Positions 4,544 to 21,409 are shown, numbered from the stretch's first letter. The stretch: DNA of 32,000 bases from Psychrobacter sp. DM4 (GCF_051307035.1 NZ_CP195536.1:1770001-1802000), one strand, 5' to 3'. Notes: generated by a model not told the origin, from the letters alone. Program-made: numbers and translations.

Positions 4544-6613
4544 ATGCAGCTAAATGTTTGTAGTAGACTTATCAAAAATTTGCGTCGTCCAGCTTATATT
4601 GTAGGGATAACCTTACTTACGTTATCTGCACACTCAGCATTTGCTGCCGTTAGCTGCCCTGCTGGTTTCACCTCTGATGAATTCTCAAACTCAGATTATA
4701 CCAATCTTGCTCCGGTGGTCTCACCACCTACTCCACAAAGCAACCAAAATGTTATCGGTATTAAAAGCGAGAGCTACTTGATAGCTTCCAATAGTTTAAC
4801 CACTAGCGGCACTTTAGATACTGGGGGAATAAATAGATATCAATCGGATACTACTGGAGGTGTGCAAGTTTTTCGTTTCTACCAAGACTTTGCCGATAAA
4901 ACGAGTACACGAACCGCGTCTTATACCTTTAGTAATAAATTTTCCAATCAGCCTCAGGCGCTCACTAATGTTGGTATTAGTATTTACGACATAGACACAA
5001 GCTACGTAGGGACAGACTTTGCTGGTAATAGGTATTTCGAGTTTTTTGACCAAGCGACCGTCACAGGGGTTACTAGTGCAGGGACGACGATTAGTCCAGT
5101 CTTACAATCTAAAGGCGCTGGAATTACCAGCATAGCACCTTATCGGCAAACAAATTTGACTAGCAGTGTCAGTTGCGGCGGCTTGAACGACAATTGCAGA
5201 GTTTCATTGTCATTCAACCAGCCTGTTGTAAAAGTAGACATTACTTACGGTAATAATACTGACTTAAATTATTTTGATCAAAGTGATGATGACGGCGATG
5301 GTAATCAATTCAATGATCCTGGCGATCAGCTAGTTGATATAAGATTTGATGGCTATTGTTATCAGCCGCAGCCGCGATTGATTTACACAAAAGCATTGTC
5401 TGACCCTCGCATTATAGATACAGATGAGTTTAGGATTCAGATAACAGATAACGCAAATAATACCTCAGTGACCAGTGGTATCAGTACGACGACGACAGCA
5501 GGAGAAGGTAATACTGTTACTACTGGTACAGGTACAACAGGGACTTTTAGAGTTGATCCTACCAAGACATATACTTTGACCGAGATTGCCTCAGGCACCA
5601 CAAACCTGTCAAATTATAATGCTACTTATACTTGTAGAAGATCAGATGGTACAACAGTGACAACGCTAAATCCAAATAGCCTAAAACTTACTTATGGGGA
5701 CAATTGGACTTGTACCATTACTAATAGTCGCAGTTTTATCTTTTCAGGTATCGTCTTTAACGACAACGGCGGTATTACAGCGAGTAGTGCTGATAGACAG
5801 AACATCTCTTCAACCTTCATCGGTAATGGCAGCTACTTTAACGGAACCTTTGATAGTGCTACTGAATCTGGCATATACGACAACAACTTACAAGTTCGAT
5901 TGACCAACTGTAATGGCACCAACATCGCAACCACCTCGCCCAATCCGCAGACAGTATCGAATGATAATGCCACTAGAGGTCGATATAACTTTATCGTACC
6001 AGCGAGTGCGCTTGCCAATAGCACTAGAGTCTGCGTGGTAGAGAATGAACCAAGCGCTTGGGACTTTACAATAGATACCACACCAGATACGCGCGAGGTC
6101 ACATTGGTTGCCAATGTCTTTGAATACAAAACCGAGAGAAATAGTGCAGGCGCAATCACGCGCAATTTAGATTTTGGTGAAGTTCGGGCTGCAAATGCAG
6201 CGTTAGTACTCATAAAATCTCAATACGTTCACGACTGTAACGCTAGTCTTAATTATCAAAATGTCGGTAGTAGTGAGAATCCAACACAAGGTTTTAGTAC
6301 CAACCCAATTAGTAATATTGAATCTGGAAGGTGTATCGCTTACCGTATTCAAGCGTTTAACCGAGGTCATATAGCGCTACAGCAAGTACGAATAAGTGAT
6401 GAGTTGCAATCTGACCCTGTCGCTTCAGTGTTCAAGCGTCCAGCGCCTCTGTTTATTCCAACCTCAGTCGCCAGTCCAACGGTTGCATACGATACCAATG
6501 GCACTATTCAATCTAATCTGTTTAGTTTGACTGCAACATCAACTACGGCAAGTGTACCGCCTTCAGCGAGGTTGTTTTTCAATACTAAATTTGGTACGAC
6601 TCAATCAAACTGA
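4544..6613 (+). CDS. Secreted multi-domain Ig-like surface protein A1 (putative tip adhesin-like; paralogue of A2)
   Basis: 689-aa ORF with AAGGA 6 nt upstream. Signal peptide ends ...LSAHSAFA|AVSC. Domains by eye: an N-terminal domain bracketed by Cys38 and Cys272; a SpaA/prealbumin-like domain (YTLTE ... NWTCTITN); an SdrD-B-like domain starting FIFSGIVFNDNGGIT; and a C-terminal DUF11-like domain (ALVLIKSQYVHDC...GRCIAYRIQAFNRG...RISDEL). Composition is Thr/Asn/Ser-rich. Confidence 0.85.
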   Translation: MQLNVCSRLIKNLRRPAYIVGITLLTLSAHSAFAAVSCPAGFTSDEFSNSDYTNLAPVVSPPTPQSNQNVIGIKSESYLIASNSLTTSGTLDTGGINRYQSDTTGGVQVFRFYQDFADKTSTRTASYTFSNKFSNQPQALTNVGISIYDIDTSYVGTDFAGNRYFEFFDQATVTGVTSAGTTISPVLQSKGAGITSIAPYRQTNLTSSVSCGGLNDNCRVSLSFNQPVVKVDITYGNNTDLNYFDQSDDDGDGNQFNDPGDQLVDIRFDGYCYQPQPRLIYTKALSDPRIIDTDEFRIQITDNANNTSVTSGISTTTTAGEGNTVTTGTGTTGTFRVDPTKTYTLTEIASGTTNLSNYNATYTCRRSDGTTVTTLNPNSLKLTYGDNWTCTITNSRSFIFSGIVFNDNGGITASSADRQNISSTFIGNGSYFNGTFDSATESGIYDNNLQVRLTNCNGTNIATTSPNPQTVSNDNATRGRYNFIVPASALANSTRVCVVENEPSAWDFTIDTTPDTREVTLVANVFEYKTERNSAGAITRNLDFGEVRAANAALVLIKSQYVHDCNASLNYQNVGSSENPTQGFSTNPISNIESGRCIAYRIQAFNRGHIALQQVRISDELQSDPVASVFKRPAPLFIPTSVASPTVAYDTNGTIQSNLFSLTATSTTASVPPSARLFFNTKFGTTQSN

Positions 6614-6658
6614 TTGATGGCTGCCCTATCATAAGCAGCTTTTGAGATAGCGACATCG

Positions 6659-6697: not shown

Positions 6698-6709
6698 TGT
6701 GTGCATACT

Positions 6710-6781
6710 CTTGCATTTCATCCTGATATAACTACCTCTCATACTTTATTGTTAGGCTTTACTTGCGTCTTTGTATAAGAT
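6710..6781 (+). promoter_or_regulatory. Putative A2 promoter with two 21-bp-phased repeat boxes
   Basis: The proximal box ACTACCTCTCA (6731-6741) matches the ACTACCATTCA box of the B2 promoter at 9/11 positions. The distal box CTTGCATTTCA (6710-6720) matches at 6/11 and lies exactly 21 bp upstream. TTTGTATAAGAT (6770-6781, -10-like TATAAG) starts 39 nt after the proximal box, the same geometry as at 9063-9134 and 12185-12256. Confidence 0.45.
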
Positions 6782-6858
6782 TAAACACTCAAAGTAATAT
6801 CATAATTTTGATTCTTTACTTAATAGCTAAAGAGCCAAAGATCATAAGGCGTAACGAT

Positions 6859-8913
6859 ATGCACAATATTCACATCTCTCTGTATACTCGTGTAGCCAAT
6901 ATGCCTACATATCGAGTACTCGTATCGCTTGCCTTTATGATAGGTTTTTTTGGTACTGAAGCTAACGCCAATTTCGAATCTACTGCGACCTCTACAGCTG
7001 CTGCTTGTCCCATAAATCATAAGATGTACTTTATTGGTGCCAACGCCAATGCTCCTGCGTCAACGCCAGACTTTCCCGTAGTGAGCTTACCTCTCAACTG
7101 GACAGCTGGAGACTCTTCGAGAAATTTTACTTTCGCAGAATCTTCAGGAAACAAAACCTTCAATATTAATTTCTCATCGATTGTGGAAAAAAACAATAGT
7201 CAAGGTGCTCCTCCTTTCTATGGGTCTATTAATGGCAGCACATCTTCTGCTATTAACTTGGTTCACGACTCTACATCGACTGTAAATAACCATATTTTAA
7301 ATATTAGTACCAATCGCTCAGTGAGTAAGGCAGGCTATGAAATACAAGATGTAGACTCCTTAACCTCTAATGTTATTATTGGGTATATTGGTTTCTTTCC
7401 AATTCGCGCAGATAGAACACCATATGCAGAACAGATAGACGTATCTGCCAACGGTGGTCGGTTGACATTTAATAGTTTGTTTCATGCTGCTAACAACCCT
7501 GCTCCTAATACCAGTATAGTGACCGCAATTGAAGGTCAGAACTGTTCTACTGGTGAGTGTGATATTGATGCTTCTTGGGGTTACAAAGCTGCAAATAGCG
7601 TCCTAGGATTGAGACATAATAATACGATTAATGAAACCCCTGCTCCACATGCTGTTGGATATTCTAATTTTTATTTTTGTTTAGCACCACCTAAAGTTCT
7701 TGTAAAAAAAGTACTAGCTGGTAACCGTGTCAATGATACTGATACTAATCGAGATCAGTTTGAGCTTAGTATTAACAGAGGAACAACGGTTGTCAATGCG
7801 GTTACCACGACAGGCTCAGGTTCAGCCGTCACGAACAACAACAATCGAAATGCTGTAAGCATAGCTGAAAACACAAGCTATACCATTACTGAACGCGTCA
7901 GAAATGGTACAACGCTTGGTGAGATTGCAAATTATAATGCTACTTATACCTGTACCAATGCGACCACAGGTAGTACCACTGTCATGCCCACTGCAAATAT
8001 GGTATTTAATGCGACTACAAAAACTCGTTCGTTTACGTTGGCTAGTACCAATTTTGGTGATGAGATAACTTGTACCATTACCAACACACCAATCGGCTAT
8101 ACTTTTTCGGGTACTGTATTTGATGATAATGGTGGTATTACAGATAGTGAAGCCAACGCTACTAACGCAGACATTGCTAGTAGCAGTAGCCCTTACGCGA
8201 ATAGACCCAATTATTTTAATGGGGTATTTAATACACCTCAAGAGCTCGGTATTGCTGGCAGTACGGTCAAATTAGTCAACTGTACGGCCCCTAGTACCGT
8301 TTATGCCACTCAAGCAGTATCAACAACGGGGACTTACCAGATAAATGCTTCTGCCGCTACGATAAATAGCAATTCTAATAATATCTGCCTAGTAGAAGAG
8401 CGCGCTGGTACTGATTACCCTATTCGTACCAACGCACCTACTAAGACGGTCAATATAGTCACCAATACCTTTGATTACCCTAATAATAACTTTGGTCGCG
8501 TGATCGCTGCAAACGTCGCCTTGGTGCTCAAAAAGTCTCAATACATCAATAACTGCCCTGCGACACTCAACTACGCTAGTATTGGAGATACCACCAGTCC
8601 ATCGACAGGGTTTAGCTCAGCCTTAGTTGAAAATATCGCACCTGGCAGATGTATCGCCTACAAGATTACAGCGACCAATCGCGCTAATGTCAATATTGAT
8701 AACTTTGTTATGAAAGATATATTACAAAACAAAGGGGTCAACAATGCCATCGTGACGTCAACAATTGCAGCTCCTGCCCCCGCTTCAACAGATTATACGG
8801 CCAACAGCCCTACTATTGGCCAAAATGGTACAATGGAGTCTAAATCCTTTACCTTAAACCCAAGAACCAAACGTGACTTCTATTTCAATACCAAGTACGG
8901 TACCAGTCAATAA
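6859..8913 (+). CDS. Secreted multi-domain Ig-like surface protein A2 (paralogue of A1)
   Basis: The ORF track gives 6763-8913. I prefer ATG 6859 (AAGG 9 nt upstream), with ATG 6901 (MPTYRVLVSLAFMIGFFGTEANA|NFEST) as an alternative. Architecture matches A1: an N-terminal domain from AAACPINH to NFYFCLAPP; a SpaA-like domain (KVLVKKVL...YTITE...EITCTITN); an SdrD-B-like domain (YTFSGTVFDDNGGIT); and a C-terminal DUF11-like domain (ALVLKKSQYINNC...GRCIAYKITATNRA...MKDIL). Confidence 0.85.
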   Translation: MHNIHISLYTRVANMPTYRVLVSLAFMIGFFGTEANANFESTATSTAAACPINHKMYFIGANANAPASTPDFPVVSLPLNWTAGDSSRNFTFAESSGNKTFNINFSSIVEKNNSQGAPPFYGSINGSTSSAINLVHDSTSTVNNHILNISTNRSVSKAGYEIQDVDSLTSNVIIGYIGFFPIRADRTPYAEQIDVSANGGRLTFNSLFHAANNPAPNTSIVTAIEGQNCSTGECDIDASWGYKAANSVLGLRHNNTINETPAPHAVGYSNFYFCLAPPKVLVKKVLAGNRVNDTDTNRDQFELSINRGTTVVNAVTTTGSGSAVTNNNNRNAVSIAENTSYTITERVRNGTTLGEIANYNATYTCTNATTGSTTVMPTANMVFNATTKTRSFTLASTNFGDEITCTITNTPIGYTFSGTVFDDNGGITDSEANATNADIASSSSPYANRPNYFNGVFNTPQELGIAGSTVKLVNCTAPSTVYATQAVSTTGTYQINASAATINSNSNNICLVEERAGTDYPIRTNAPTKTVNIVTNTFDYPNNNFGRVIAANVALVLKKSQYINNCPATLNYASIGDTTSPSTGFSSALVENIAPGRCIAYKITATNRANVNIDNFVMKDILQNKGVNNAIVTSTIAAPAPASTDYTANSPTIGQNGTMESKSFTLNPRTKRDFYFNTKYGTSQ

Positions 8914-8935
8914 TTTAACGTTTTAGACATCCAAA

Positions 8936-8972
8936 AACGCCTATTTAGTTATCCGACTAGATAGGCGTTTTT
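8936..8972 (+). terminator. Rho-independent terminator after A2
   Basis: AACGCCTAT (8936-8944) pairs with ATAGGCGTT (8961-8969) and is followed by a T-run to 8972. Confidence 0.7.
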
Positions 8973-9062
8973 GATTTCGGAAATTTCTTCATACATAGGT
9001 TTCTACCTAAAGCATAGTTTATCTACTTCTCGTCTTGATGAATATTTTCTAGTAATTATGTG

Positions 9063-9134
9063 ATTACCATTCAGTAACTTCAAACCGCCATCTATCACCT
9101 TTTTGATGACTTAATTTTTGCTATTTGTAATGAT
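9063..9134 (+). promoter_or_regulatory. Putative B1-C1 promoter with two 21-bp-phased repeat boxes
   Basis: ATTACCATTCA (9063-9073) matches ACTACCATTCA at 10/11, and ACCGCCATCTA (9084-9094) matches at 7/11. A -35-like ATGACT lies at 9106-9111. TTTGTAATGAT lies at 9124-9134 (TG-n-AATGAT, extended -10-like). By hand, the 31 nt from the -35 element to the -10 element align at 21/31 with 12226-12256. Confidence 0.5.
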
Positions 9135-9276
9135 GCAGGCATCAGAAATACCTCAGTATTTTCACAGACTTATCTCTAGATATTCGTTATTGAATCATAC
9201 TTCTAGTACGTCCCAAGCTATCCAGAATAGCGATATGCATGTGTCTGATCGACAACCCCTTACAAAGGATTTTATT

Positions 9277-9741
9277 ATGCAATATTTTAATCTTTTACGT
9301 ACCACTATATTTGTGGCAGTAGCTTTCACCGTATCGCTAGGCGCTGCTCATGCCGATGACGCTTTGAAGATGAATTTGAGCGCGAATAAAGTCATCAAAA
9401 ATGCTGAGGGCGGTATCTCTTATCTACCCGTGAGCACAGCACCAGCGGGCACTGTTATTCAGTATAAAGCGAACTATACCAATACCATAAGTAAAGACAT
9501 CAATAACGTTATGGTCACGCTACCTATCCCTGCCAACATGACGTTTACAGGTGATGCCTTGCCTGCTAGTGCTCAAGCAAGTATCGATGGCAAGAATTAC
9601 GCAGACATGCCTTTGATGCGCAAAGTCGATGGCAAGCTAGTCAAGATCCCATTATCTGAATACCGTACGCTACGCTGGAATATCAAATTACTACCTGCTA
9701 ACAAGTCTGCTGCTGTGGCGTTAAATACCAAAGTTAGCTGA
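9277..9741 (+). CDS. Small secreted single-domain DUF11-like protein B1 (154 aa)
   Basis: The ORF track gives 9118-9741. I place the start at ATG 9277 because AAAGGA lies 7 nt upstream and a clean signal peptide follows (MQYFNLLRTTIFVAVAFTVSLGAAHA|DDALKM). A single Ig-like domain is present (GTVIQYKANYTNT...VTLPIPANM). About 80% identical to B2 over the mature protein (103/128, hand count). Confidence 0.85.
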   Translation: MQYFNLLRTTIFVAVAFTVSLGAAHADDALKMNLSANKVIKNAEGGISYLPVSTAPAGTVIQYKANYTNTISKDINNVMVTLPIPANMTFTGDALPASAQASIDGKNYADMPLMRKVDGKLVKIPLSEYRTLRWNIKLLPANKSAAVALNTKVS

Positions 9742-9810
9742 TAAAAGCTCTACTATCATTTTCAACTTATATCACTAACTATTTATTTATTTATCGTCTT
9801 GGAGCATTTT

Positions 9811-11856
9811 ATGAAAGCAGCAACCTTTAAACATAGCTTGATCGCTGTTGGCGTTACTGCAGCATTAGGTATCTCTACTAGTGCCTTAGCTACTAACACT
9901 ACTAGCGGTACGACCACCACTAACGTAGATATTAAAAACATTGCAACAGCAAACTATGACATCGCTGGTGTCAAACAGACAGAGGTGAAGTCTAACGAAG
10001 TTATCGTTCGAGTATCAGAGAAATTATCGTTCTCTTTGGTTGCAAATAACGAAGATGGTAATCCTGGTGATACTATCAATGAAAAACTAGAAGTTGCTCC
10101 TAACGGTTTTGCGGTATTTAACCACACGTTGACCAACACTGGTAACCGTAATGACAACTATACGCTCAATCTTGCCAATGTTACTGGTGATGATGCAGAT
10201 TACGATTTGACCGCATCTACGGTTACCTACTCTTTATACAATGCAGGACAGACTCCTGGTACCGATACGCCTGTATCTACGCAATCTAATGTCCCTGTGA
10301 GTACGCTCAATGGAACTAGTTTCGCATTAGAGGCAGGTCAGTTTGTCAAGTTCACTATTAATGCCAAGACTAAAGATAACAAAGGCGGCAATAGACAAAA
10401 TTTGAGATTAACAGCAACTAGCTCTTTATTGCCAACTGCCAGCAAAACATTGACTAACACTGACAAATCAGTGACAACACTACCAACATTTAGTATTGTT
10501 AAAACAGTTTTGAACTCGTTAGATCTGAATAATGCTAACGATACTGCTACCTATCAGATAGTAATCAAGAACCCAACGACTGACTATTCTGCTAATGCAA
10601 CTGATATTACTATTACAGATAACTTGCCAGCGGGTCTGCTTATAGCATCAGCACTAACGACGAATAGCATTGTTGTTAGTGGTAGTGCGACTAAAGGTGC
10701 GCTCTCTCAAACTGATAAAGGTTTTGAGTTAAAAGGAGCAAACCTTCCTGTGGGTGATAGTATCACTATTAACTTTACGGTCAAAAAAGACCCTAATGCT
10801 GCCCTAGCAAACAATGCCTTGAACCATGTTAAAGTCACTGATGATTTGGACAATAACCCAGCTACTGATAACACTTTGATCGATAGCACTGACAGTACGG
10901 TTGAAAACGTCAACCAATTCTATCCTGTCAATGATACCGACTTTACCAACGGTACCAATGCAGATGGTACTAACGGCAATGACTCCACTCAGCCACTAGC
11001 GACTATTAAACGTGAGCTGAAATTGACCAATCCTACTATAAAAGAGATCGCTCCGACTTCAGGTACAGCAGGTCAGGTTTTACATCAAACTCTTATTACT
11101 AACAGTGGTCAAAACACTGAAGGCAATGTGACAGGCGGCTTAACCTTTACTATTACAGATAACGACAATGGTACGCCAGATGCGGTAAACGTCGTACCTG
11201 GTTCTGTAACCCTGACCTATGATCCAGATGGTCCTGGTTCTGCGCCAGCGCAAACCGCAGTCGGCATTACCCCTAATAACAGTGGCGTATATGATATCAA
11301 GACCGCCCTGCCTAATGGTATAGCGCCTACCGGTACGGTTAATATCAGTTATAAGGTCTCATCAGAAAATGCTGAAATTGGTATCTCTGAAGATACTGTA
11401 GTGAGACTGACTGCTAGTGGTAAAGGCGCGCCTACAGTTGCTCCAGTAACTGATAGAACAGATGTTAAAGGTATTACTCTCGTCAAGAGCCAAGCTTTAG
11501 ACGCTGCGTGTGACGGTACTGCTGATACTGCCTTTAGTAGCTCTGCTGATCCACTTGCGGCAACGCCCGGTCAATGCGTAATCTATCAAATCGCGGCCAA
11601 GAACACCTCTACTACTGAGCGTGGATTCAATATACAGAATCTAGTCATCTCAGATGCGACAGCCAACTTCGTTGCGACTGCTGATTACAGAGGAAACACT
11701 TTTGCCTCTACAACTAGCACAGGTTCTGGTACAACCGTCACATCTGCTGCAGCGCGTAACGCTGACGAAACAGCTATTAGTACTACTATTAACCCACTAG
11801 TACCGCAGGGAACAGCGACAATGAAGTTTTCAGTGAAGATTAAAACGAATCGTTAG
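9811..11856 (+). CDS. Secreted multi-DUF11-repeat protein C1 (putative fibre shaft subunit)
   Basis: The ORF track gives 9799-11856. I place the start at ATG 9811 with GGAG 6 nt upstream. Signal peptide ends ...GISTSALA|TNTT. Canonical DUF11/TIGR01451-type motif is present (TATYQIVIKNPT...ATDITITDNLPAGLLIAS). There is an N-terminal NIATANY...SNEVIVRV hairpin and a C-terminal Cys-pair domain (ITLVKSQALDAAC...GQCVIYQIAAKN). Confidence 0.85.
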   Translation: MKAATFKHSLIAVGVTAALGISTSALATNTTSGTTTTNVDIKNIATANYDIAGVKQTEVKSNEVIVRVSEKLSFSLVANNEDGNPGDTINEKLEVAPNGFAVFNHTLTNTGNRNDNYTLNLANVTGDDADYDLTASTVTYSLYNAGQTPGTDTPVSTQSNVPVSTLNGTSFALEAGQFVKFTINAKTKDNKGGNRQNLRLTATSSLLPTASKTLTNTDKSVTTLPTFSIVKTVLNSLDLNNANDTATYQIVIKNPTTDYSANATDITITDNLPAGLLIASALTTNSIVVSGSATKGALSQTDKGFELKGANLPVGDSITINFTVKKDPNAALANNALNHVKVTDDLDNNPATDNTLIDSTDSTVENVNQFYPVNDTDFTNGTNADGTNGNDSTQPLATIKRELKLTNPTIKEIAPTSGTAGQVLHQTLITNSGQNTEGNVTGGLTFTITDNDNGTPDAVNVVPGSVTLTYDPDGPGSAPAQTAVGITPNNSGVYDIKTALPNGIAPTGTVNISYKVSSENAEIGISEDTVVRLTASGKGAPTVAPVTDRTDVKGITLVKSQALDAACDGTADTAFSSSADPLAATPGQCVIYQIAAKNTSTTERGFNIQNLVISDATANFVATADYRGNTFASTTSTGSGTTVTSAAARNADETAISTTINPLVPQGTATMKFSVKIKTNR

Positions 11857-11888
11857 AGAAATATCGTAGTAAGTATCAGTATCTAGCG

Positions 11889-11925
11889 CTCATAGGAACA
11901 TAAACGTGCCTATGAGTGTTTTTTT
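11889..11925 (+). terminator. Rho-independent terminator after C1
   Basis: CTCATAGG (11889-11896) pairs with CCTATGAG (11909-11916) and is followed by TGTTTTTTT. Confidence 0.75.
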
Positions 11926-12184
11926 GTGTATAATATTTGCAAGTTGATGTGTCAGCAAAAGCAGCTACGGATCGAAGATCCTAATTCTAACGCTAGTAAA
12001 TCGTCTTATTATTCAACATTATAGAAATATTAAGTCTTTAAGCGAATATGCGTAAGTAAAGTTATTTCTTATTTTCAGAGCATTTACCCTCATTACTTGT
12101 ATACGATAACTTGATTACATGTTTCACATAAATGATTGTTATTGTTAGTTTTTTACCAAAAAAATGCATGATAATCATATTCTT

Positions 12185-12256
12185 ACTACCATTCAACTAC
12201 TACTAACTACCATTCATCTTTTATGTAGTGACGGTATGTTACCTATTTGTGATAAT
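12185..12256 (+). promoter_or_regulatory. Putative B2-C2 promoter with two exact 21-bp-phased repeat boxes
   Basis: An exact 11-mer, ACTACCATTCA, occurs at 12185-12195 and 12206-12216. A -35-like GTGACG lies at 12228-12233. After a 17-bp spacer comes the extended -10 element TGTGATAAT (TG 12248-12249, GATAAT 12251-12256). Confidence 0.55.
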
Positions 12257-12373
12257 ACAACCATAAGAGTTGTATCTATCCTCAATTGTCCACATTTACT
12301 TATTGCCATTCGGTATGGCACAGATGTTGCACCAATGACCACGACTAGCAATGAATTGAACAAGGACAAAGAT

Positions 12374-12838
12374 ATGAACCTCTCTAACTTATTACGTACT
12401 ACCTTACTGGCAACTTTAGCAAGCCTTACTTTATCAGGTATTGCTCACGCTGATGACGCTCTAAAAATGGAGCTAACAGCAAATAAAGTCACTAAGGCTG
12501 TAGATGGCAAAGTAAGTTACGCACCTGTTAGTACCGCGCCAGCAGGTACCGTGATTCAGTACAAAGCGAACTATACCAATACAATTAATAAAGACATTAA
12601 CGATCTAGCCGTTATCTTACCTATCCCAACTAATATGGCATTCAACGGTGAAGCTAGTCCTGCTAGCGCACAGGCAAGCATCGATGGCAAGAACTACGCC
12701 GATATGCCACTGATGCGCAAGGTGGATGGCAAGATGATTAAGATTCCATATTCTGAATATCGTACATTACGTTGGAATATCAAATTACTACCCGCTAAGA
12801 AGTCTGCCGCTGTGGCACTGAACACCATTGTCGAATAG
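12374..12838 (+). CDS. Small secreted single-domain DUF11-like protein B2 (154 aa)
   Basis: The ORF track gives 12164-12838. I place the start at ATG 12374 with AAGGA 7 nt upstream. Signal peptide is MNLSNLLRTTLLATLASLTLSGIAHA|DDALKM. Same length as B1 and ~80% identical to it. Confidence 0.85.
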   Translation: MNLSNLLRTTLLATLASLTLSGIAHADDALKMELTANKVTKAVDGKVSYAPVSTAPAGTVIQYKANYTNTINKDINDLAVILPIPTNMAFNGEASPASAQASIDGKNYADMPLMRKVDGKMIKIPYSEYRTLRWNIKLLPAKKSAAVALNTIVE

Positions 12839-12882
12839 TTCGTTTTTGGACTACTCATTTATACCCTTAGGAGAATTACCGT

Positions 12883-14904
12883 ATGAAACCTAACTTATTT
12901 AAATACTCAGTACTGACCGTCGGTATTGTCACTGCTATGGGTATTACTAGCACTGCTAATGCTGACGATGTCACTTATAGTGAAGACAATGCCTTTGTTG
13001 TAAAGAACATCGCCACTGCGACCTACAATGTCACAGGTAATGATACTCAGCAAACTGCTGAATCGAATGAGGTGACTATTACTGTCAATGAGACAGGTGC
13101 GTTCAGCTTGATTGCCACCGTTGCTGATGGTAGCCCTGGTGACGATGAAAACGAAGATATCGATGTCAACCCAGTATCAGGTGCTCCTGTCGAGTTTACT
13201 CATACCTTAACGAACGATGGTAACATCACAGATACCTATACTATAGATATCTCAAATGAAAATGGCGATGACTTTGATTATGATATTGCCAACAGCACGA
13301 TTACATATCAGATCCGTGATATCGACGGTAACCCCGTTGGCGCTGTTGAGCCTGTCCTTAATGGCGGTACTATAGAGCTTGATCCAGGTCAGTCTGCTGA
13401 TATCGTTATCAGCGCGGTTACAGATCCTAATGATGATCGCGTGATTGGTGATAATGGTATATTAACGGTCACCTCGACCAGTAAATATCTAACTGATCTT
13501 GGCCAGCCTGCAGTCGCTACTAACACGGATAATGCTGTTACCGTAACGCCTATCTATGCGATTACGAAGTCAGCGCAAAGCAACCTTGGCACTCAGATTA
13601 TCGATTTAAATAACGCCAATGCCTACGTTGACTACACGATTACCGTGTTGAACGAAGGTACCGCTGACGGTACTGATGTTACTATTACAGATGATCTGCC
13701 TGCTGGCCTAATTGCCATACAAAACGGCGAAGCCAATTATGTGGCACCTACTACTACTGGTACAGGCACTCCTGCTGTCTCAAGCGATGGTAGAACGGTT
13801 ACTTTAATTGGTCAAAATATCGATCAAAACGATACAATCACGATTACCTTCCGCGCCAGACCTGCTGACAATGCAACAGTCGGTAGTGACTTTGTCAACT
13901 TTGCGGTAGTGACTGATGATTTAGACGACGATGGTGACATTGATCTAACGGATAGTTCAGGTGACGCTGCTGATAACAATACAACAGAAGATAACTTTGA
14001 AGATCCAACCAACCCTGATATCGGTGAAGATAATAACGATAATGCGACTGTTACACCAAGGAATCAGACGCGTTCTTTGACCATTACTGATGATGAAAAT
14101 AAAGAAGTCGCTCTACAAAGCACTGATAATGTGTACACTTATACCATTACCAATGCTGGTACAGATGTCACTGAAGCAGACGCTGAAGATGAAGTCTTCT
14201 TCACAGTGACACCAACTATCGACATCAACGAGATCGATACGGTTACTGTATTTGTAGATGCTAATGGTGATGGCGTATTCGATGCTGGTGAGACCGTATT
14301 GACTCCTAATGCTAGTGGTCAGTATGACTTAAACGATGCGGTTAACGCAGGCCTTGCTCCTAGTGAATCCGTGACTATCGGTGTCGTTGTCAATACCAAT
14401 GGTTCAGGCAGTAACAACGGTCAAGATAGCGATATTGGTAAGTTTGAGGAAATCGTTATCACAGTTCTACCACAAACAGTAGTAGACGGTACACCTGCTC
14501 CTGTCGATGTTAGCGCTGAGTCAACGACAACGATGGAAGGTATTGATCTATTCAAATTCCAAGCCGCTGCTGCTTGTGACACCAATCCGACCTCTATTAC
14601 GAACTGGGTAACGACTAATGTGGTGGCTACTGCTGATCAGTGTGCATTCTACAAATTAGAAGCTACTAATACTTTCTCTAATACAGCAATTAATAGTATT
14701 GTTCTATCGGATACTCTAGTTGATACGCTGACTTATCAAAATGGTAGCTTCTCTTCTGAGACGTCAAACAACTCAGATGACGCGACATCGACTATCTCTG
14801 GCCAGAGTGTCAGTGGTACGTTTGCTACTTTGACAGGAACAGAAACAGGTACTATCTATTTCTCTGCCAAGATCTCTCAGACGGGTACTAATAGCACACC
14901 ATAA
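12883..14904 (+). CDS. Secreted multi-DUF11-repeat protein C2 (acidic paralogue of C1; putative fibre shaft subunit)
   Basis: 673-aa ORF with an AGGAG RBS. Signal peptide ends ...GITSTANA|DDVT. DUF11 motif is present (YVDYTITVLNEGTADGTDVTITDDLPAGLIAI). There is an N-terminal NIATATY...SNEVTITV hairpin and a C-terminal Cys-pair domain (IDLFKFQAAAAC...DQCAFYKLEATN). Composition is very Asp/Glu-rich. Confidence 0.85.
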   Translation: MKPNLFKYSVLTVGIVTAMGITSTANADDVTYSEDNAFVVKNIATATYNVTGNDTQQTAESNEVTITVNETGAFSLIATVADGSPGDDENEDIDVNPVSGAPVEFTHTLTNDGNITDTYTIDISNENGDDFDYDIANSTITYQIRDIDGNPVGAVEPVLNGGTIELDPGQSADIVISAVTDPNDDRVIGDNGILTVTSTSKYLTDLGQPAVATNTDNAVTVTPIYAITKSAQSNLGTQIIDLNNANAYVDYTITVLNEGTADGTDVTITDDLPAGLIAIQNGEANYVAPTTTGTGTPAVSSDGRTVTLIGQNIDQNDTITITFRARPADNATVGSDFVNFAVVTDDLDDDGDIDLTDSSGDAADNNTTEDNFEDPTNPDIGEDNNDNATVTPRNQTRSLTITDDENKEVALQSTDNVYTYTITNAGTDVTEADAEDEVFFTVTPTIDINEIDTVTVFVDANGDGVFDAGETVLTPNASGQYDLNDAVNAGLAPSESVTIGVVVNTNGSGSNNGQDSDIGKFEEIVITVLPQTVVDGTPAPVDVSAESTTTMEGIDLFKFQAAAACDTNPTSITNWVTTNVVATADQCAFYKLEATNTFSNTAINSIVLSDTLVDTLTYQNGSFSSETSNNSDDATSTISGQSVSGTFATLTGTETGTIYFSAKISQTGTNSTP

Positions 14905-14923
14905 TTACTGATTTATGATCAAA

Positions 14924-14960
14924 GGAGTTTTCTTAATCAGATTAAGAAAACTCCCCTTTT
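14924..14960 (+). terminator. Strong hairpin with a weak T-tract between C2 and D (leaky terminator or attenuator)
   Basis: A perfect 14-bp stem, GGAGTTTTCTTAAT (14924-14937) with ATTAAGAAAACTCC (14941-14954), closes a 3-nt loop and is followed by CCTTTTA. Confidence 0.55.
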
Positions 14961-15009
14961 ACCCTTTATACATTAACTATGTTTTCTTTCATAAGTAGGA
15001 TTACCGAAT

Positions 15010-18000
15010 ATGCGTCAAGCTGTATTTTCGACTCGTAACCCTCGCTACCGTACAGGCGCGTTGACTGCGCTGACTACGTTGGCAGCGTCGATGCTACTTA
15101 TGCAAGCAAATATCGCTCATGCTGAAGATGGCAAGGGTGTCACCACGATCAACAACATCGCGCAAACCAGCTACACAGTTGGCAACAGCAATCAGACGAG
15201 CACGTCTAACCAAGTTAGCTTTAAATCATTAACCCTGCCTCAATATGAGGTTAGCCTTACTCAGCCTGATCTACAAACTATCAGTGCGGGTGATACTGTT
15301 CAGTGGGTCAATGTACTATCGAATAATGGCACCTTTGATGAAACCGTTACTCTAAGCTTTGACTATCCAAGTACGCTATCTAACTTTGCGGTATACCAAG
15401 ACCTTAACGAAAACGGCATCATCGATGATAGTGATAGACAAGTTATACTCGATGGTTTGAGCGCTCAAATTGCCTTGGGTCAAGCCGAAAGTATCCAGTT
15501 TATCGTTCAAGCTTTGAGTGATCGTAACGCTGCTAGTGGCGATACTGCTGAGATTAAGATTGGCGCTGTCGTTGTCGAAGATGATTCTGTAACAGCAGCA
15601 GCGACTGACCGCCTCATCATTGTCAAGCCGAGTATTGGCTTTACAGACGATAGGTTTGAAGGGCCAAAAGATACGACACAAATAAGCTCAAACGTATACG
15701 TAGAAGCCAATTACGCGCAGTGTAATGTGCAGCCCAACGCAAAAGACCAAGTATGGGTGACAATTACCTCAGAATTGACAGGTGACAAATACTCTCTAAA
15801 AGCAATAGAGACGGGCGACAACACGGGTAAATACCAAGTATCAGCGCCGACTCAAAATAATGCCAATAAGATCGATGACCAGATTATTCAGACTTTGAAA
15901 GGCGATTCGCTGACCGTCACACTTGATGCTTGTATTACACCTGATGGCGGTCGCGTTGATATCATAGACAATATCAGCAACAACATCGATATTGTTGATC
16001 AATCTGCGAGCCTACAAGTTCAAAAAGAAGGCGATATCAAATCAGCTGATCTTGGTGATTACGTCAACTACAGTATTAATGTCACTAATAATGGTGCTGC
16101 AACCGCGTTCGATGTTGAGCTAAAAGATGCGTTGCCACGTGGTTTCGACTATGTCAAAGGTAGCGCACGCGTCAACCAAGGGGCTAATAGCGCAGATAGC
16201 GATATTGATATCAGTCAAGCTCAAACTACTGAGTTCAAGGTAGACGGCAAGTATCAAGTTCTAAACCTAGGTAACTTAGCTGCGGGTGAGACGAAGAGTG
16301 TCACTTATCGCGTTCTTATTGGCGCGTCAGCATTAGGTGGCGACGGTATTAACCGTGCTACCGCAGTCGCTCGTGATGATAATGACAATGTATTTGCATC
16401 CATGGAATCACAGTGGTCTGTTGATGTTAGCCGTGGTCTTATGAATACTGATGGTATTATCATTGGTAAAGTCTATCACGACATCAACCGAGACGGCATC
16501 CAGCAAAAAGAAGACGGCGAGCTTGGTGTCGCAGGTGTACGCATCTACATGGAGAACGGTAACTTTATCGTGACCGATCCTGAAGGTAAGTATAACTTTT
16601 ATGGTATCAGTGCCAAGACCCACGTATTAAAAGTCGATCGTACAACTATTCCTGTCGCAAGTGAGCTCATCACTCAAAGTAACCGCAACGCTGGAGATGC
16701 TGGTAGCCGCTTCGTTGATCTCAAATACGGCGAGTTACATCGCGCTGATTTCGCTATTGTTGGCGGTATGAGCGATAGCACTGAAACTCTTAACGCTGAG
16801 CTGGTTGCCCGTAGCAAAAGTATTAGCGCTAAGAACGATACCTTAGAGCAAGCGGTTAAAAGCAAGCTCGATTTAGAGCCTATCTATGATCGCGACTATG
16901 ATGACAACGTCGATGCTACTGGCTGCAAATCTAACGATGTACTCGATAAAGGTATCAAATGCGACTCTGCTATTGTCAACGAATTAGCGATACCTAGCGC
17001 TAATCGTATCAATATGGATGTCAAAAAAGTCGTCCAACCTAAAGAAAAAGTACTAGAAGAGTACCTAAAAGAAGTTGATAACAATAATGTTGCGTTTATT
17101 AATCTAAGTAGCGATCAACAGCTTGCTTCATATAAGCAGATGGTCCAAGTACAAGCGCCATTAGGTTCTAACTTTACCCTGTATGTGAATGGCAAAGCCG
17201 TATCAGCAGAACAGATCGGTAAAACGGCTGAACAAGAAAAACAAAACGTTACCGCGTTTGATTATTACGCTGTTGATTTACAGCGTGGTCGTAATACGCT
17301 CCGCGGCGTTGCCACTGATATCAATGGCAAGACGATTTCTGAGCAGTCCATCAATGTGACTACGCCTGATAGCTTGCAGGCGATCAACTACCGTACTCAG
17401 GATGGCTTAGTAGAAGCTGATGGCCTGAGCGAATATCAGATCGTCGTTAGTCTAAAAGATCGTGACAATCGTCCTTATGTTGCCTCAACACCGATCACTA
17501 TTGATACCAATATTGGTCGCATAAACTTACCTGATGGCAGTAAGGATAAAGCTGGTACGCAAGTGATGGTCAATGGTGGCGAGATACTAATTCCTGTCAT
17601 TGCACCAAGCGTACCTGGTAAAGGTCAGCTCGTTATCGACACTGGCAGCAGCAAACAAGTTATCGATTTACAGTTTACTCCTAAGCTGCGTCCGCTGATT
17701 GCGGTTGGTATCGTAGAAGGTGCAATATCACTCAAAGACTTCGATGGCGGCAGCATCACTGATGCTCAGGGCGCTTTTGAGCAAGAGCTAAATGAGATTG
17801 CAGGCGGTGACGATTACTCAGCGACTGGCCGTGCGGCGATGTTCCTCAAAGGTAAAGTTCGCGGTGATTATCTACTGACGCTCGCTTATGATAGCGACAA
17901 AAAAGGCGAGCGCTTGTTTCGTGATATCGAGCCTGGCGAGTACTACCCTGTCTATGGTGACTCATCGGCTAAAGGTTTTGACGCTCAATCAACGAGCAAA

Positions 18001-20313
18001 CTCTATGTGCGCCTAGATAAAGGTCGCTCATTCGCTATGTACGGTGATCTAAAAACTCAAGTCGATAACGATGATGGTATTAAGCTGGGTCAATACAATC
18101 GTACACTTACTGGTCTAAAAGCTCAGTATGAAGACACCAATACTCGTATCACTACGTTCCTTGCCGAAACCAGTTCATCACAGCGTGTGAATGAGACTCG
18201 TGGTCTTGGTATATCAGGCCCTTATCCTCTAGCTGAAGATTTCGACGCCGTATTAGAGAATTCTGAAATTGTTGAAGTCATCACTCGTGATGCCAATAAT
18301 CCTGGTCTCATTATACGCCGTGAAACGCTAAGTCGTTTCGCTGATTATGAGGTTGACCCTTTAAGCCGCAGTTTGTTCCTAAAAGCGCCTATTGCCAGTC
18401 AAGATCTAGATGGTAACCCTATCTACATCCGCGTGACAGTAGAAGTCGATGAGGGTGGCGAAGATTACTTTGTTGGCGGTATCGCAGCCAAGCAACAATT
18501 AAATAACAAGGTTTCTATTGGTGGTAGTTACGTCAATAGCGACGATCCACTCAATAAAGAAGAGCTTGCGAGCATTAACAGTGTTATCAAATTCAATGAC
18601 AAGCTAAAAATAGTCGCTGAATACGCGATGAGTAAAGCAGAAAACCCTAACTATCAAGCTAGCAATCAGATCAATACCCAAGAGCTAGATATACAAGATG
18701 CTGATGGTGATGCTCTGCGTATTGAGCTAAATTACGACGACAAGAAAAATACTCGTGCAAAAGCCTACTATAATGATGCTGACGAAGGTTTTGTCACTGG
18801 TGCATCCATTTTAACTGCTGGACGTACTGAATCTGGTGTTGAGATCAAACACCTTATCAATGATAAGAACACAGCGCTCAAATTTGAAGGCGTACGTACC
18901 AAAGACAATACGACTGATGCAACTCGTCAAGGTGTCGAAGCCAGTATCGAGCAGCGCTTGAGTCAGAACGTCGTTGGCGAGCTTGGTGTCCGTTATTATA
19001 AGCAAGATGCTACCGCTGCCTCACGCAACACTCAAGAAGCCACAGATGTTATTGATATCACTGATGATACGCTATTTGAAGACGATATTATCAATCAGTC
19101 AGCACTCAGTAGTGTGAGCGATGCTGACAAAGATATCGAAGGTACTACCGCACGCGCGCGTATTACCGCACGCCTGCCTAAGCTTAATAATAGCTTAGTG
19201 TTTGCAGAATACGAGCAAGATATTGAGAACAGCTCGCGTAACGCAACCTCCGTTGGTGGTGAGACGCCACTTGGCAATCTTGGTCGTCTATATGCTCGTC
19301 ATGACTTAATCAATAGTTTGTCAGGCAGTTATGGTCTCGATGATACCGATGAGCGTCAACGTACCGTCATCGGGTTCGATGCCAACTATATGAAAGACGG
19401 TAAAGTCTATAGCGAATACCGTATGCGTGATGCCATTAGTGCTCGTGAAGCAGAGGCCGCTATCGGTCTTAAGAACAAATGGTATGTGCAAGAAGGTCTG
19501 ACTCTCAATACCTTGTTTGAGCGCGTTGAGTCACTTGAAGGTGAAGAAAACAATACGGCGACCGCAGCGGGCATCGGTGTTGAATATTTAGCACAAGAGA
19601 ATTACAAAGCTTCAGGTCGTTTCGAGAAACGCTGGGGCGAGACTAGCGACACGTTGCTCGGCAGTGCTGGTATTGCTTATCGTTATACCGATGAAATTAC
19701 GTTACTTGCAAAAGACACTTACTCTCGTATCGATTATGACGATGGCGATCGTACTGTCAACCGCTTCCAGTTGGGCGCGGCGTATCGAGATCTAAATAGT
19801 AATCAGCTCGATATGCTAGCCAAGCTTGAGTATCGTTTAGATGACAATAATACGGGCGATGATACTTATCGCAGAGATACTACGATTTGGTCGTGGAATG
19901 GTAACTATCATCCGACTCGTCCTTTGACTTTATCTGGTCGTTACGCTGGTAAGTATACAGAATACGAAGCAGATAGCATCTCAAGTGATAACACAGCACA
20001 CGCCGTATACGGTCGTGGACTTTATGATCTTAGTGAGCGTTGGGACGTCGGTCTGCAAGCCGGTACTTACTGGAATGATCAAGCGGACGATCTGTCTTAT
20101 ATGCTAGGCGCTGAGGTCGGTTATAGTCCTATGACTAATCTATGGTTGTCTCTAGGGTATAACTTTATGGGCTTTGAAGATGATGATATTGCCTATGACG
20201 ATAGTACTCAACAGGGCGCATACTTTAGACTACGCTTCAAGTTTGATGAAGAATTATTCAAGCGTGATGATCCAAGCAAAAATAAACGTTTAGCAAGTAA
20301 CTCTACTTTATAA
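15010..20313 (+). CDS. Giant outer-membrane protein D: N-terminal Ig-like/DUF11/SdrD-B/Big_1-like region plus a very large predicted C-terminal beta-barrel
   Basis: 1767-aa ORF with AGGA upstream. Signal peptide ends ...MQANIAHA|EDGK. There is an N-terminal NIAQTSY...SNQVSFK hairpin. A canonical DUF11 motif is present (YVNYSINVTNNGAATAFDVELKDALPRGFDYV), as is an SdrD-B-like motif (GKVYHDINRDGIQQKEDGELGVAGVRIYMENGNFIVTDPEGKYNF) and a Big_1-like motif (VEADGLSEYQIVVSLKDRDNRPY). From about aa 880 (nt ~17650) the sequence shows alternating amphipathic strand/turn patterns. It ends ...LSLGYNFMGFEDDD...GAYFRLRFKF plus a 22-aa tail. Confidence 0.8.
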   Translation: MRQAVFSTRNPRYRTGALTALTTLAASMLLMQANIAHAEDGKGVTTINNIAQTSYTVGNSNQTSTSNQVSFKSLTLPQYEVSLTQPDLQTISAGDTVQWVNVLSNNGTFDETVTLSFDYPSTLSNFAVYQDLNENGIIDDSDRQVILDGLSAQIALGQAESIQFIVQALSDRNAASGDTAEIKIGAVVVEDDSVTAAATDRLIIVKPSIGFTDDRFEGPKDTTQISSNVYVEANYAQCNVQPNAKDQVWVTITSELTGDKYSLKAIETGDNTGKYQVSAPTQNNANKIDDQIIQTLKGDSLTVTLDACITPDGGRVDIIDNISNNIDIVDQSASLQVQKEGDIKSADLGDYVNYSINVTNNGAATAFDVELKDALPRGFDYVKGSARVNQGANSADSDIDISQAQTTEFKVDGKYQVLNLGNLAAGETKSVTYRVLIGASALGGDGINRATAVARDDNDNVFASMESQWSVDVSRGLMNTDGIIIGKVYHDINRDGIQQKEDGELGVAGVRIYMENGNFIVTDPEGKYNFYGISAKTHVLKVDRTTIPVASELITQSNRNAGDAGSRFVDLKYGELHRADFAIVGGMSDSTETLNAELVARSKSISAKNDTLEQAVKSKLDLEPIYDRDYDDNVDATGCKSNDVLDKGIKCDSAIVNELAIPSANRINMDVKKVVQPKEKVLEEYLKEVDNNNVAFINLSSDQQLASYKQMVQVQAPLGSNFTLYVNGKAVSAEQIGKTAEQEKQNVTAFDYYAVDLQRGRNTLRGVATDINGKTISEQSINVTTPDSLQAINYRTQDGLVEADGLSEYQIVVSLKDRDNRPYVASTPITIDTNIGRINLPDGSKDKAGTQVMVNGGEILIPVIAPSVPGKGQLVIDTGSSKQVIDLQFTPKLRPLIAVGIVEGAISLKDFDGGSITDAQGAFEQELNEIAGGDDYSATGRAAMFLKGKVRGDYLLTLAYDSDKKGERLFRDIEPGEYYPVYGDSSAKGFDAQSTSKLYVRLDKGRSFAMYGDLKTQVDNDDGIKLGQYNRTLTGLKAQYEDTNTRITTFLAETSSSQRVNETRGLGISGPYPLAEDFDAVLENSEIVEVITRDANNPGLIIRRETLSRFADYEVDPLSRSLFLKAPIASQDLDGNPIYIRVTVEVDEGGEDYFVGGIAAKQQLNNKVSIGGSYVNSDDPLNKEELASINSVIKFNDKLKIVAEYAMSKAENPNYQASNQINTQELDIQDADGDALRIELNYDDKKNTRAKAYYNDADEGFVTGASILTAGRTESGVEIKHLINDKNTALKFEGVRTKDNTTDATRQGVEASIEQRLSQNVVGELGVRYYKQDATAASRNTQEATDVIDITDDTLFEDDIINQSALSSVSDADKDIEGTTARARITARLPKLNNSLVFAEYEQDIENSSRNATSVGGETPLGNLGRLYARHDLINSLSGSYGLDDTDERQRTVIGFDANYMKDGKVYSEYRMRDAISAREAEAAIGLKNKWYVQEGLTLNTLFERVESLEGEENNTATAAGIGVEYLAQENYKASGRFEKRWGETSDTLLGSAGIAYRYTDEITLLAKDTYSRIDYDDGDRTVNRFQLGAAYRDLNSNQLDMLAKLEYRLDDNNTGDDTYRRDTTIWSWNGNYHPTRPLTLSGRYAGKYTEYEADSISSDNTAHAVYGRGLYDLSERWDVGLQAGTYWNDQADDLSYMLGAEVGYSPMTNLWLSLGYNFMGFEDDDIAYDDSTQQGAYFRLRFKFDEELFKRDDPSKNKRLASNSTL

Positions 20314-20449
20314 TAAGTAGAGTTATCTTATTTTAGGCCTTTGTTGATGTAGGCTTCAAACAATACAAGCTCTACTAATTCTAATGTATTGTAAGTAATC
20401 AAACAGTCGCGACTAACCCTTATTATTTTAATACAAGGTTTGTAATACG

Positions 20450-21409
20450 ATGAATGCTTCAGACCTCACGACCAAAATACTGACCTGCCAGCGTCGCCTG
20501 CCAGCCGCTCTATCAGCTATCCTACTGGCACTCATAACCTCTTCTGCGTCGGCAGATTTGGATGTTGATAATACAACTCGCATTACACCTGTCTCTGTAC
20601 AACCTATTGCTATTCAACCTAGCGTTGTTAAATCTAGTCCTATTCAATCGACCATTACTGACCTGACTATCATTGCTCCAGCTATGAATATCAGCACAAA
20701 TGCTATAACTCGCTGTGAAGATAATCGTCAGAATAAAACTTCTAAATACCAAACCAAGCAGCAGCGTGATATCGCTTGCATGATCGAGCAATTACAACCG
20801 TATCAGCAAGCAAATGTGACCGCCCGTCAGCAGTATCTAGCTTTTAAGGCACAAGCATGGCTTAACTACGCCAATAATAAATACAGTATGAATAGCCGTG
20901 CCTCTATTGCTGATTATGCTTTCGAGTCTGGCAAAGAGATTTTTTTGGCACTTAAAAACAATGATGAGCAAAACATTAATCTTGTAAGAGACATTCCGAC
21001 AACCTCTGATATGATGCGCCCTGACCTTTGGGCGATGCTAAGTGCACTTAAAACGGCGGGCGGTATCAATAGTGCGCCGCGTGAGCTGGCTTTTAGCGAA
21101 GTTTCTCTAATTTGGGCAGCAGCAGATCATTGTGCTAGAGGCTGGCGCGAGTCGAGTCCTCGTTTTAGAATGGGCGAGCGCTGGTTAGAACAAACCCGTG
21201 AAGCCTATGTCAATGCCAATAGCTCTACTGATAGCGCTGCGCTTATTGAGCAGATCAACAGCTACTATAAACAATATGAGCAACTAGACCCTAGAAATAA
21301 TATCTGTAATGGTCAAGTCATGCCTGTGGTCAACCAAACCCAGGCTAGTGCTACGTCTGTTTTTATTCCAATGCCTATGCCAACGGCTACTTATACCCTT
21401 TCCAACTAG
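20450..21409 (+). CDS. Secreted, predominantly helical protein E of unknown function
   Basis: 319-aa ORF with AAGG upstream. The N-terminus is ...CQRRLPAALSAILLALITSSASA|DLDV: a signal peptide containing a twin-arginine pair whose context is not a clean Tat motif. There are four Cys in the mature part and no recognisable catalytic motif. A bidirectional terminator follows the gene. Confidence 0.7.
   Translation: MNASDLTTKILTCQRRLPAALSAILLALITSSASADLDVDNTTRITPVSVQPIAIQPSVVKSSPIQSTITDLTIIAPAMNISTNAITRCEDNRQNKTSKYQTKQQRDIACMIEQLQPYQQANVTARQQYLAFKAQAWLNYANNKYSMNSRASIADYAFESGKEIFLALKNNDEQNINLVRDIPTTSDMMRPDLWAMLSALKTAGGINSAPRELAFSEVSLIWAAADHCARGWRESSPRFRMGERWLEQTREAYVNANSSTDSAALIEQINSYYKQYEQLDPRNNICNGQVMPVVNQTQASATSVFIPMPMPTATYTLSN

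Follow-up and report, generated by a model that had tools for sequence, protein, structure and literature searches.

Why do six proteins of one bacterial gene cluster stop before their last domain is complete, and why do three proteins of the same cluster begin with a hairpin that has no domain of its own? The cluster is located in a window of 32,000 nucleotides from Psychrobacter sp. DM4 (GCF_051307035.1 NZ_CP195536.1:1770001-1802000). The window is the whole stretch of DNA that was analysed, and positions are counted from its first letter. Eight genes on the plus strand, A1-A2-B1-C1-B2-C2-D-E, lie between a pyruvate dehydrogenase E1 gene and a TetR-family gene, and all eight proteins are annotated as "hypothetical protein". 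The answer proposed here, with a probability of roughly 0.6, is that the cluster encodes a modular cell-surface fibre. Its subunits would be joined by trans-complementation of a split CLIPPER (DUF11, CnaA-like) domain, probably locked by an isopeptide bond, with D at the base, C in the shaft, A at the tip, and B as a cap.

Truncated C-Terminal Domains and Orphan Hairpins

The domain family DUF11 has been renamed CLIPPER, and its crystal structure 9IFR, from a fibrillar adhesin of Acinetobacter silvestris, is a nine-strand CnaA-like beta-sandwich (Protein Sci 2025, PMC12617251). In A1, A2, B1, B2, C1, and C2, the C-terminal CLIPPER-like domain halts a few residues after strand F, the strand that precedes the hairpin strands. 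These truncated domains are here called catchers. The catcher of A1 (6173..6610) contains Lys558 (nt 6215) and Asp619 (nt 6398), and ends 10 residues past the F-strand Phe679. The catcher of A2 (8491..8910) contains Lys591 (nt 8533) and Asp652 (nt 8716), and ends 8 residues past Phe708. The corresponding residues are Lys563 (nt 11485) and Asp619 (nt 11653) in C1 (11452..11853), which ends 8 residues past Phe677, and Lys558 (nt 14554) and Asp610 (nt 14710) in C2 (14503..14901), which ends 13 residues past Phe660. In all four, Lys is in the motif L-x-K-x-Q, and Asp is in S/K-D. Among the A- and C-type proteins, the distance from the F-strand aromatic residue to the C-terminus has a median of 8 residues (range 4–19). 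In complete domains, an Asn is present 13–15 residues beyond the same aromatic residue.

C1, C2, and D carry an orphan two-strand hairpin right behind the signal peptide, and it resembles the final two strands of a complete CLIPPER domain. It is here called the tag hairpin. It occupies 9925..10020 in C1 (VDIKNIATANY...KSNEVIVRVSE), 12994..13092 in C2 (FVVKNIATATY...ESNEVTITVNE), and 15139..15228 in D (VTTINNIAQTSY...TSNQVSFKS). The putative isopeptide residues are Asn47 (nt 9937), Asn42 (nt 13006), and Asn49 (nt 15154), respectively. An earlier reading of this DNA, made from the sequence alone (the sequence-only reading), had given the coordinates of the three hairpins and quoted the six C-termini; translations and the ends of the open reading frames (ORFs) agree with both exactly. 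It had also placed the hairpins 6–12 residues after signal-peptide cleavage. This does not hold for D, where the hairpin begins about 5 residues past the likely cleavage site, as judged by eye from the AXA motif.

The catchers share a pair of Cys residues, Cys565 (14575-14577) and Cys587 (14641-14643) in C2, and the same columns are Cys in A1, A2, and C1. About 128 A/C-type catchers could be compared, and 102 of them have C/C. The two residues probably form a disulfide, as would suit a domain that folds outside the cytoplasm.

Correspondence of the Two Halves

The hairpin is the best-conserved segment of the C family. Its conserved residues follow an alternating pattern, which suggests one buried face. 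A hidden Markov model (HMM) of the hairpin finds 134 sites in the ORFs of 87 loci. Nearly all (129) begin at residues 33–100, directly after the signal peptide, and the remaining 5 are the tails of complete internal CLIPPER domains. A weak look-alike inside the N-terminal part of A1, TNLAPVVSPPTPQSNQNVIGIKSE (window 4544-4800), had been mentioned in the sequence-only reading. It is not significant with this HMM (score -0.6) and was rejected, so that A1 is acceptor-only.

The hairpin is too short for pairwise statistics, and thus three aggregate tests were used: register, reciprocal HMM, and Pfam chimera. For the register test, a tail HMM was trained solely on the segments that follow strand F in D-type internal CLIPPER domains. 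Its Asn column falls exactly on the hairpin Asn in 102 of the 129 N-termini, versus 0–12 of 129 in five column-shuffled controls. On single N-termini the tail HMM gives 3–12 bits each, barely above decoys, and its evidence is convincing only as a register test over all 129 sequences. This register bears out the claim that the orphan hairpins of C1, C2, and D match the strands absent from the C-terminal domains of the A, B, and C proteins.

The Pfam profile PF01345 has 114 positions and a gathering score of 24.6 bits. Catcher-type domains cover only positions of about 2–86, for example 11–84 in B1 and 2–84 in a cargo protein of the metagenomic locus L004, and complete domains reach 103–107. The internal domains of C2 and D score 32.3 bits (14–107) and 51.3 bits (2–103), respectively. 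B1 scores 16.3 bits over 11–84, which is under the threshold. The catcher of the L004 cargo passes at 39.0 bits, yet its coverage stops at 84. When the hairpin of its cognate D is attached, the score rises to 48.9 bits and the coverage extends from 2–84 to 2–99; a scrambled hairpin adds only 0.4 bits. These boundaries, together with the short C-terminal distances of the A/C-type proteins, agree with the statement of the sequence-only reading that the A, B, and C proteins end right after an F-type strand.

Profile comparison by hhalign shows that the C-family catcher is homologous to an internal CLIPPER domain (E=1e-3), with the Asp and strand F in register. The catcher stops 10 residues after F, whereas the complete domain continues for 41. 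The hairpin alone scores no better than shuffles in hhalign. With iteration, the HMMs of the catcher, of B, and of D-CLIPPER wander into the CLIPPER superfamily at large, and they served solely as a common frame.

A natural fusion joins the two halves. P0274 (3865 aa; L087 10001-21598) is a metagenomic protein composed of C-like units, and B-like and C-like genes are located upstream in its own locus. This one chain contains four junctions at which a hairpin begins about 11 residues behind a catcher (F-to-Asn spacing 16–17) and a C-type domain 1 comes next. Every junction has Lys, an acid, and Asn. This fusion indicates that catcher and hairpin form one domain, linking units head-to-tail. P0274 itself has a tag hairpin at its start and, in place of a barrel or catcher, dockerin-like repeats (NCDGIVNIDDITIV...) at its end. 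This end suggests another mode of anchoring in its organism.

Division of the Isopeptide Triad

In 9IFR, an intramolecular isopeptide bond connects a Lys of strand 1 to an Asn of the penultimate strand, and an Asp catalyses the reaction (PMC12617251). When the internal domain of D (residues 335-460) is aligned to 9IFR, Lys339 falls on the isopeptide Lys, and Asn448 of "INRATAV" falls on the isopeptide Asn. Because of the latter, the "N-x-A" strand of the tag hairpin is equated with the Asn-bearing strand. The internal CLIPPER domains of C1, C2, and D each contain the whole triad in cis; it is Lys229, Asp270, and Asn339 in C2 and Lys339, Asp373, and Asn448 in D.

In the two halves the triad is divided. 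Lys and Asp are in the catchers of the A and C proteins, Asn is in the hairpins of the C and D proteins, and the catchers end before the Asn position. Within the 87 loci, all 67 of 67 C proteins carry the hairpin Asn as well as the catcher Lys and Asp, and among the D proteins whose N-terminus can be detected, 57 of 57 have the hairpin Asn. The B proteins are different. B1 and B2 have Ala at the Lys position and Leu at the Asp position, and 66 B proteins of these loci lack both Lys and Asp. The division of the triad is a point absent from the sequence-only reading. Because the split divides exactly these three residues, the link between subunits is probably covalent, in the sense of "complement and lock" rather than of a reversible exchange in the style of chaperone-usher pili.

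One C homologue, P0072 of Psychrobacter sp. 72-O-c, has Ser in place of the hairpin Asn and Glu in place of the catcher Asp, at positions equivalent to 13006 and 14710 of the window. It is the sole such case among 71 C-family sequences. The double change looks like a coupled one, affecting both halves.

Structure Prediction of C2

The full-length mature C2 was modelled with AlphaFold2 (AF2), giving a mean predicted local distance difference test score (pLDDT) of 83.5 and a predicted template modelling score (pTM) of 0.50. The predicted catcher contains strands up to F only, and its last residues are disordered; this, too, agrees with an end right after strand F. Domain 1 is complete without the hairpin. 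The hairpin has a pLDDT of 81–92 and is as confident as the catcher, and the linker between the hairpin and domain 1 is below 50. When the catcher is removed, the remainder rises to a pLDDT of 92 and a pTM of 0.78, and the hairpin becomes the least confident region. The pattern fits a contact that is intermolecular and is rendered in cis by the model.

Distribution of the Module

The family defined by the C-terminal ~870 residues of D is present in at least 593 species genomes, at 35–90% identity. Its carriers include Moraxellaceae, Burkholderiales, Usitatibacteraceae, Geobacteraceae, Desulfuromonas, Nitrospirota, and Verrucomicrobia. Across phyla, the gene order [A]-B-C-D-E-[cargo] recurs in the 87 loci with the termini alike, and a donor-only D and an acceptor-only A or cargo protein are co-encoded in nearly every locus. 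The downstream cargo proteins, 900–2700 aa in length, have unrelated heads and no hairpin, but share a common catcher at the C-terminus with the consensus "...L-x-K-x-V-D-K...I-x-D-x-T-P...V-x-F-x-V-x-V*".

A profile made from four catchers of the window finds 526 relatives among 1.84 billion representative proteins. The best 150 of these 526 include 107 full-length catcher matches, and in 103 of the 107 the catcher is at most 20 residues from the C-terminus. The four exceptions are all junctions inside P0274. The recurrence of the B-C-D module across phyla and the fusion in P0274 uphold in silico the central proposal of the sequence-only reading: one domain is split between proteins, with an acceptor-only A as the putative tip, a donor-plus-acceptor C as the shaft, and a donor-only D as the base. 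No description of the split CLIPPER domain or of the B-C-D-E module was found by full-text literature searches, nor in either version of the CLIPPER paper (PMC12617251).

In locus L004, an exosortase (EpsH) gene (19033-20658) adjoins the B-C-D-cargo module. This neighbourhood is probably coincidental.

Proposed Assembly and Alternatives

The assembly can be pictured as follows. Strands 1–7 would come from the catcher of A1, A2, C1, or C2, together with the isopeptide Lys and the catalytic Asp; the final two strands and the isopeptide Asn would come from the tag hairpin of C1, C2, or D. The hairpin would complete the sandwich by entering the catcher of the subunit that lies next outward, and a spontaneous Lys-Asn isopeptide bond would then most likely lock the joint, with no sortase needed. 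The chain would start from D, held at the base in the outer membrane via its C-terminal barrel, continue with n copies of C, and end with A or a cargo protein at the tip. B1 and B2 would be catalytically dead catchers, probably capping the hairpins reversibly in the periplasm as a kind of inverted chaperone; this is the most economical role for B because it is a catcher without the catalytic residues. The sequence-only reading had allowed B to be either a tip cap or a hairpin cap. The loss of Lys and Asp fits the hairpin cap better than the tip cap. E could be a periplasmic accessory.

A wider version of this proposal can be advanced tentatively, at somewhat below an even chance. It would be a widespread, previously undescribed pathway of pilus assembly or adhesin anchoring in diderms, with carriers that number at least 593 species and range from Moraxellaceae to Verrucomicrobia. 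An autocatalytic ligation via a natural Tag/Catcher pair would join subunits and cargo, the dead catcher B would keep the reaction in check, and D and a peptidoglycan-linked E would anchor or export the product.

Several points weigh against the proposed fibre. The catchers of C1 and C2 are unrecognised by Pfam. The catcher-hairpin chimeras of the window gain little, 3.1 bits for B1 with DUF11 and 5.7 bits for A1 with DUF7507, and a global profile-profile alignment (hhalign) of catcher plus hairpin with a complete domain is no better than shuffled controls. The AF2 evidence consists of pLDDT and secondary structure, and the hairpin of C2 keeps a pLDDT of 77–85 after removal of the catcher, which is compatible with an arrangement in cis. 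The isopeptide chemistry is deduced from residue identity alone. Folded, cross-linked subunits would have to pass the outer membrane. Finally, some D-family loci combine a hairpin-like N-terminus with the absence of a neighbouring catcher gene; in one of them, L002 (GCA_013297865.1), a D-like stalk gene has the N-terminus 'QITNTASITAP', and there is no B, C, or catcher gene within 10 kb.

Some of these points are in line with other explanations. If the hairpin packed in cis, as a cap or ribbon or by clasping the C-terminal domain of its own chain, there would be no link between proteins. The truncated domains would then be stable seven-strand variants, and the resemblance of the halves would come from gene boundaries that cut an ancestral repeat array out of phase. 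The persistence of a confident hairpin in the C2 model without its catcher, the pTM of that model, and the non-significant hhalign result for catcher plus hairpin are all in line with this. Nevertheless, the hairpin is not needed to complete domain 1, nearly every locus encodes a donor-only D together with an acceptor-only A or cargo protein, and in P0274 the hairpin is located where the catcher before it lacks strands. The conservation of the hairpin and of Lys and Asp would be unexpected in a vestige. Packing in cis appears improbable. A similarly small chance is given to the idea that sorting or export is the main task of the C-terminal domain, which would be a signal like the C-terminal signal domain of the type IX secretion system, read by an outer-membrane machine of D and E. 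The hairpins would be docking or plug elements, and the proteins would be exported or displayed singly. In line with a signal, cargo proteins whose heads are unrelated share the same domain, and its place is always their extreme C-terminus. The barrel region of D is also large and conserved, and its partner E is conserved as well. Such a role does not account for the presence of both elements in C, for the match of the halves to the two parts of one domain, or for the fused junctions of P0274. It is also compatible with the fibre and not exclusive of it.

A closer variant is the same split-domain fibre with a purely non-covalent joint, in which strand complementation is sufficient and Lys, Asp, and Asn are kept for structure only. 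The evidence for complementarity (register, chimera, and fusion) applies to it equally. Some CLIPPER domains have no isopeptide bonds (PMC12617251), and oligomers of BsaA, a TasA-family protein of Clostridium perfringens, are stable in sodium dodecyl sulfate even without the bond (bioRxiv 10.1101/2024.11.04.621531). What tells against it is the invariance of the triad across phyla in the split halves (67/67 C, 57/57 D) and its retention at the fused junctions of P0274. Moreover, B, the catcher expected to release its partner, has lost precisely Lys and Asp. A purely non-covalent joint is unlikely, though it deserves a little more weight than packing in cis or a sorting signal, and the isopeptide-locked fibre remains the preferred interpretation.

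The Proposed Base Protein D and Its Partner E

D (15010..20313; 1767 aa), the putative donor-only base protein, consists of a signal peptide, the tag hairpin, stalk domains including an SdrD_B domain (residues 487-545), and a C-terminal region of about 870 aa (17710..20313) predicted to be an outer-membrane beta-barrel. This region gives weak porin, OMP_b-brl, and DUF2490 signals and also weak Big_1/Invasin_D3 signals. Sequence searches of the PDB return 9IFR and weak porin matches, and nothing further. In spite of the passenger-like N-terminal stalk and the C-terminal barrel region, D has no Pfam match to PF03797.

Near the C-terminus of D (window ~20220-20313), the sequence YFRLRFKF resembles a beta-signal. 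It is not terminal: a DEELFKRDD... tail comes after it, and this tail shows conservation across phyla, with the consensus 'LRLRFKFDExLF'. In locus L002 (5592-13378), two separate genes make up the D homologue: a 1469-aa stalk gene, the one with the hairpin-like N-terminus, and a 1125-aa barrel gene.

E (20450..21409; 319 aa) is a conserved secreted protein with a putative accessory role, and a gene of its family directly follows D in 62 loci. The E family of many other taxa has an extra C-terminal OmpA peptidoglycan-binding domain (e.g., L002 13390-14469), which suggests a link to peptidoglycan. The Psychrobacter E is without this OmpA domain. A stem-loop of 12 pairs followed by a T-rich run is present at 20297-20326, overlapping the stop codon of D and upstream of E. 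It could be a terminator or attenuator. A scan of the window for promoters and terminators gives counts no higher than expected by chance.

Organization of the Cluster

A1 (4544..6613; 689 aa), the first acceptor-only protein and a candidate tip or cargo protein, has a signal peptide, a divergent N-terminal head, and an SpaA_3 prealbumin-like domain at residues 282-395. A2 (6763..8913), the second acceptor-only protein, also has an SpaA_3 domain in Pfam, and its real start is probably 6859 or 6901. A1 and A2 are 36% identical over the C-terminal ~450 aa, and their heads are dissimilar. B1 (9280..9741) and B2 (12377..12838) are secreted paralogues, each with a single truncated CLIPPER-like domain and 80% identical to each other. 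Their starts were corrected to 9280 and 12377, which gives 154 aa each, as in RefSeq. The putative donor-plus-acceptor shaft subunits are C1 (9799..11856; 685 aa), which may use an alternative start, Met5, at 9811, and C2 (12883..14904; 673 aa), which is 100% identical to a RefSeq protein of Psychrobacter sp. DM4. C1 and C2 are just 32% identical, and their hairpins are still similar. Beyond the Pfam domains, NCBIfam contributes only the TIGR01451 repeat in the eight proteins.

The B-C pair is duplicated in tandem in the window, whereas most other Psychrobacter loci contain a single pair. The G+C content is 0.36–0.45 in the part from A to C2 (window 4001-15000), compared with 0.46–0.49 in the flanking housekeeping genes. 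The low G+C content may reflect horizontal acquisition.

Comparison with Known Systems

The nearest relatives by family are the CLIPPER/DUF11 domains (PF01345, 9IFR) themselves. The internal domains of C2 and D are above the Pfam threshold, and their Lys, Asp, and Asn align to the triad. In 9IFR the bond is intramolecular, in a complete domain of a single-chain adhesin (PMC12617251), whereas here the domain is split across polypeptides.

The closest mechanism is found in BsaA's "donor-strand exchange and lock" fibres and in the thread filaments of archaea (PMC9715654). In BsaA, a donor element completes the sheet of the next subunit, and an Asn-Lys isopeptide bond is formed with an acid of the acceptor as the catalyst (bioRxiv 10.1101/2024.11.04.621531). 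The triad is split in the same way, with Asn on the donor. However, BsaA and the threads have an unrelated fold (TasA/camelysin) and just one strand as the donor, and there is neither a dead-catcher partner nor a barrel-anchored base; their hosts are Gram-positive bacteria and archaea, which have no outer membrane. The proteins of the window have no Pfam match to the TasA/camelysin family or to a SipW-type signal peptidase, and the likeness to BsaA is mechanistic only.

Chaperone-usher pili (type 1, P, and Csu) share the same formal logic of tip, shaft, and base. They also have incomplete immunoglobulin (Ig)-like folds and a small periplasmic Ig-like partner encoded beside the subunit. This parallel had been drawn in the sequence-only reading, and the formal logic stands. 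Reversible exchange is less likely, the link being probably covalent, and homology is absent: the eight proteins have no match to a PapD-like chaperone or an usher (PF00577) in Pfam or NCBIfam. Here the donor is a two-strand hairpin in another fold, the proposed chaperone would cap the donor and not fill the groove, and a barrel would be part of the base protein itself.

Engineered split isopeptide pairs (isopeptag/pilin-C, SpyTag/SpyCatcher, and SnoopTag/SnoopCatcher) are Cna-type domains cut into a tag and a catcher, which reconstitute and ligate spontaneously. The tag of isopeptag/pilin-C corresponds to the final strand, which bears the Asn. These pairs are laboratory constructs, whereas the split described here would be natural, genome-encoded, and used for assembly. 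If so, the loci could offer naturally evolved and possibly orthogonal ligation pairs for protein engineering, along with a natural, reversible dead catcher. The system belongs to none of the BsaA, engineered-pair, and chaperone-usher families.

Classical autotransporters (type Va) have a 12-strand PF03797 beta-domain after an N-terminal passenger, and D differs from them in its conserved C-terminal region of ~870 aa without PF03797. The pili assembled by sortases in Gram-positive bacteria are alike in being covalent fibres of Cna-type domains with tip, shaft, and base, and SpaA_3 is shared through A1 and A2. The linkage proposed here would instead be autocatalytic and internal to a domain, and the anchor would be an outer-membrane barrel rather than peptidoglycan. 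No LPXTG motif is present (the C-termini are ...FGTTQSN, ...KIKTNR, ...TGTNSTP, and similar), and there is no sortase gene in the window or the flanking genes. Covalent pili have hitherto been linked to the Gram-positive sortase systems and a few archaeal and clostridial filaments. If the proposal is true, the four-gene module B-C-D-E, which is conserved and unannotated, would gain a function, as would the C-terminal domain of many large "hypothetical" adhesins, and Gram-negative bacteria would have a covalent, sortase-free route to build and anchor surface fibres.

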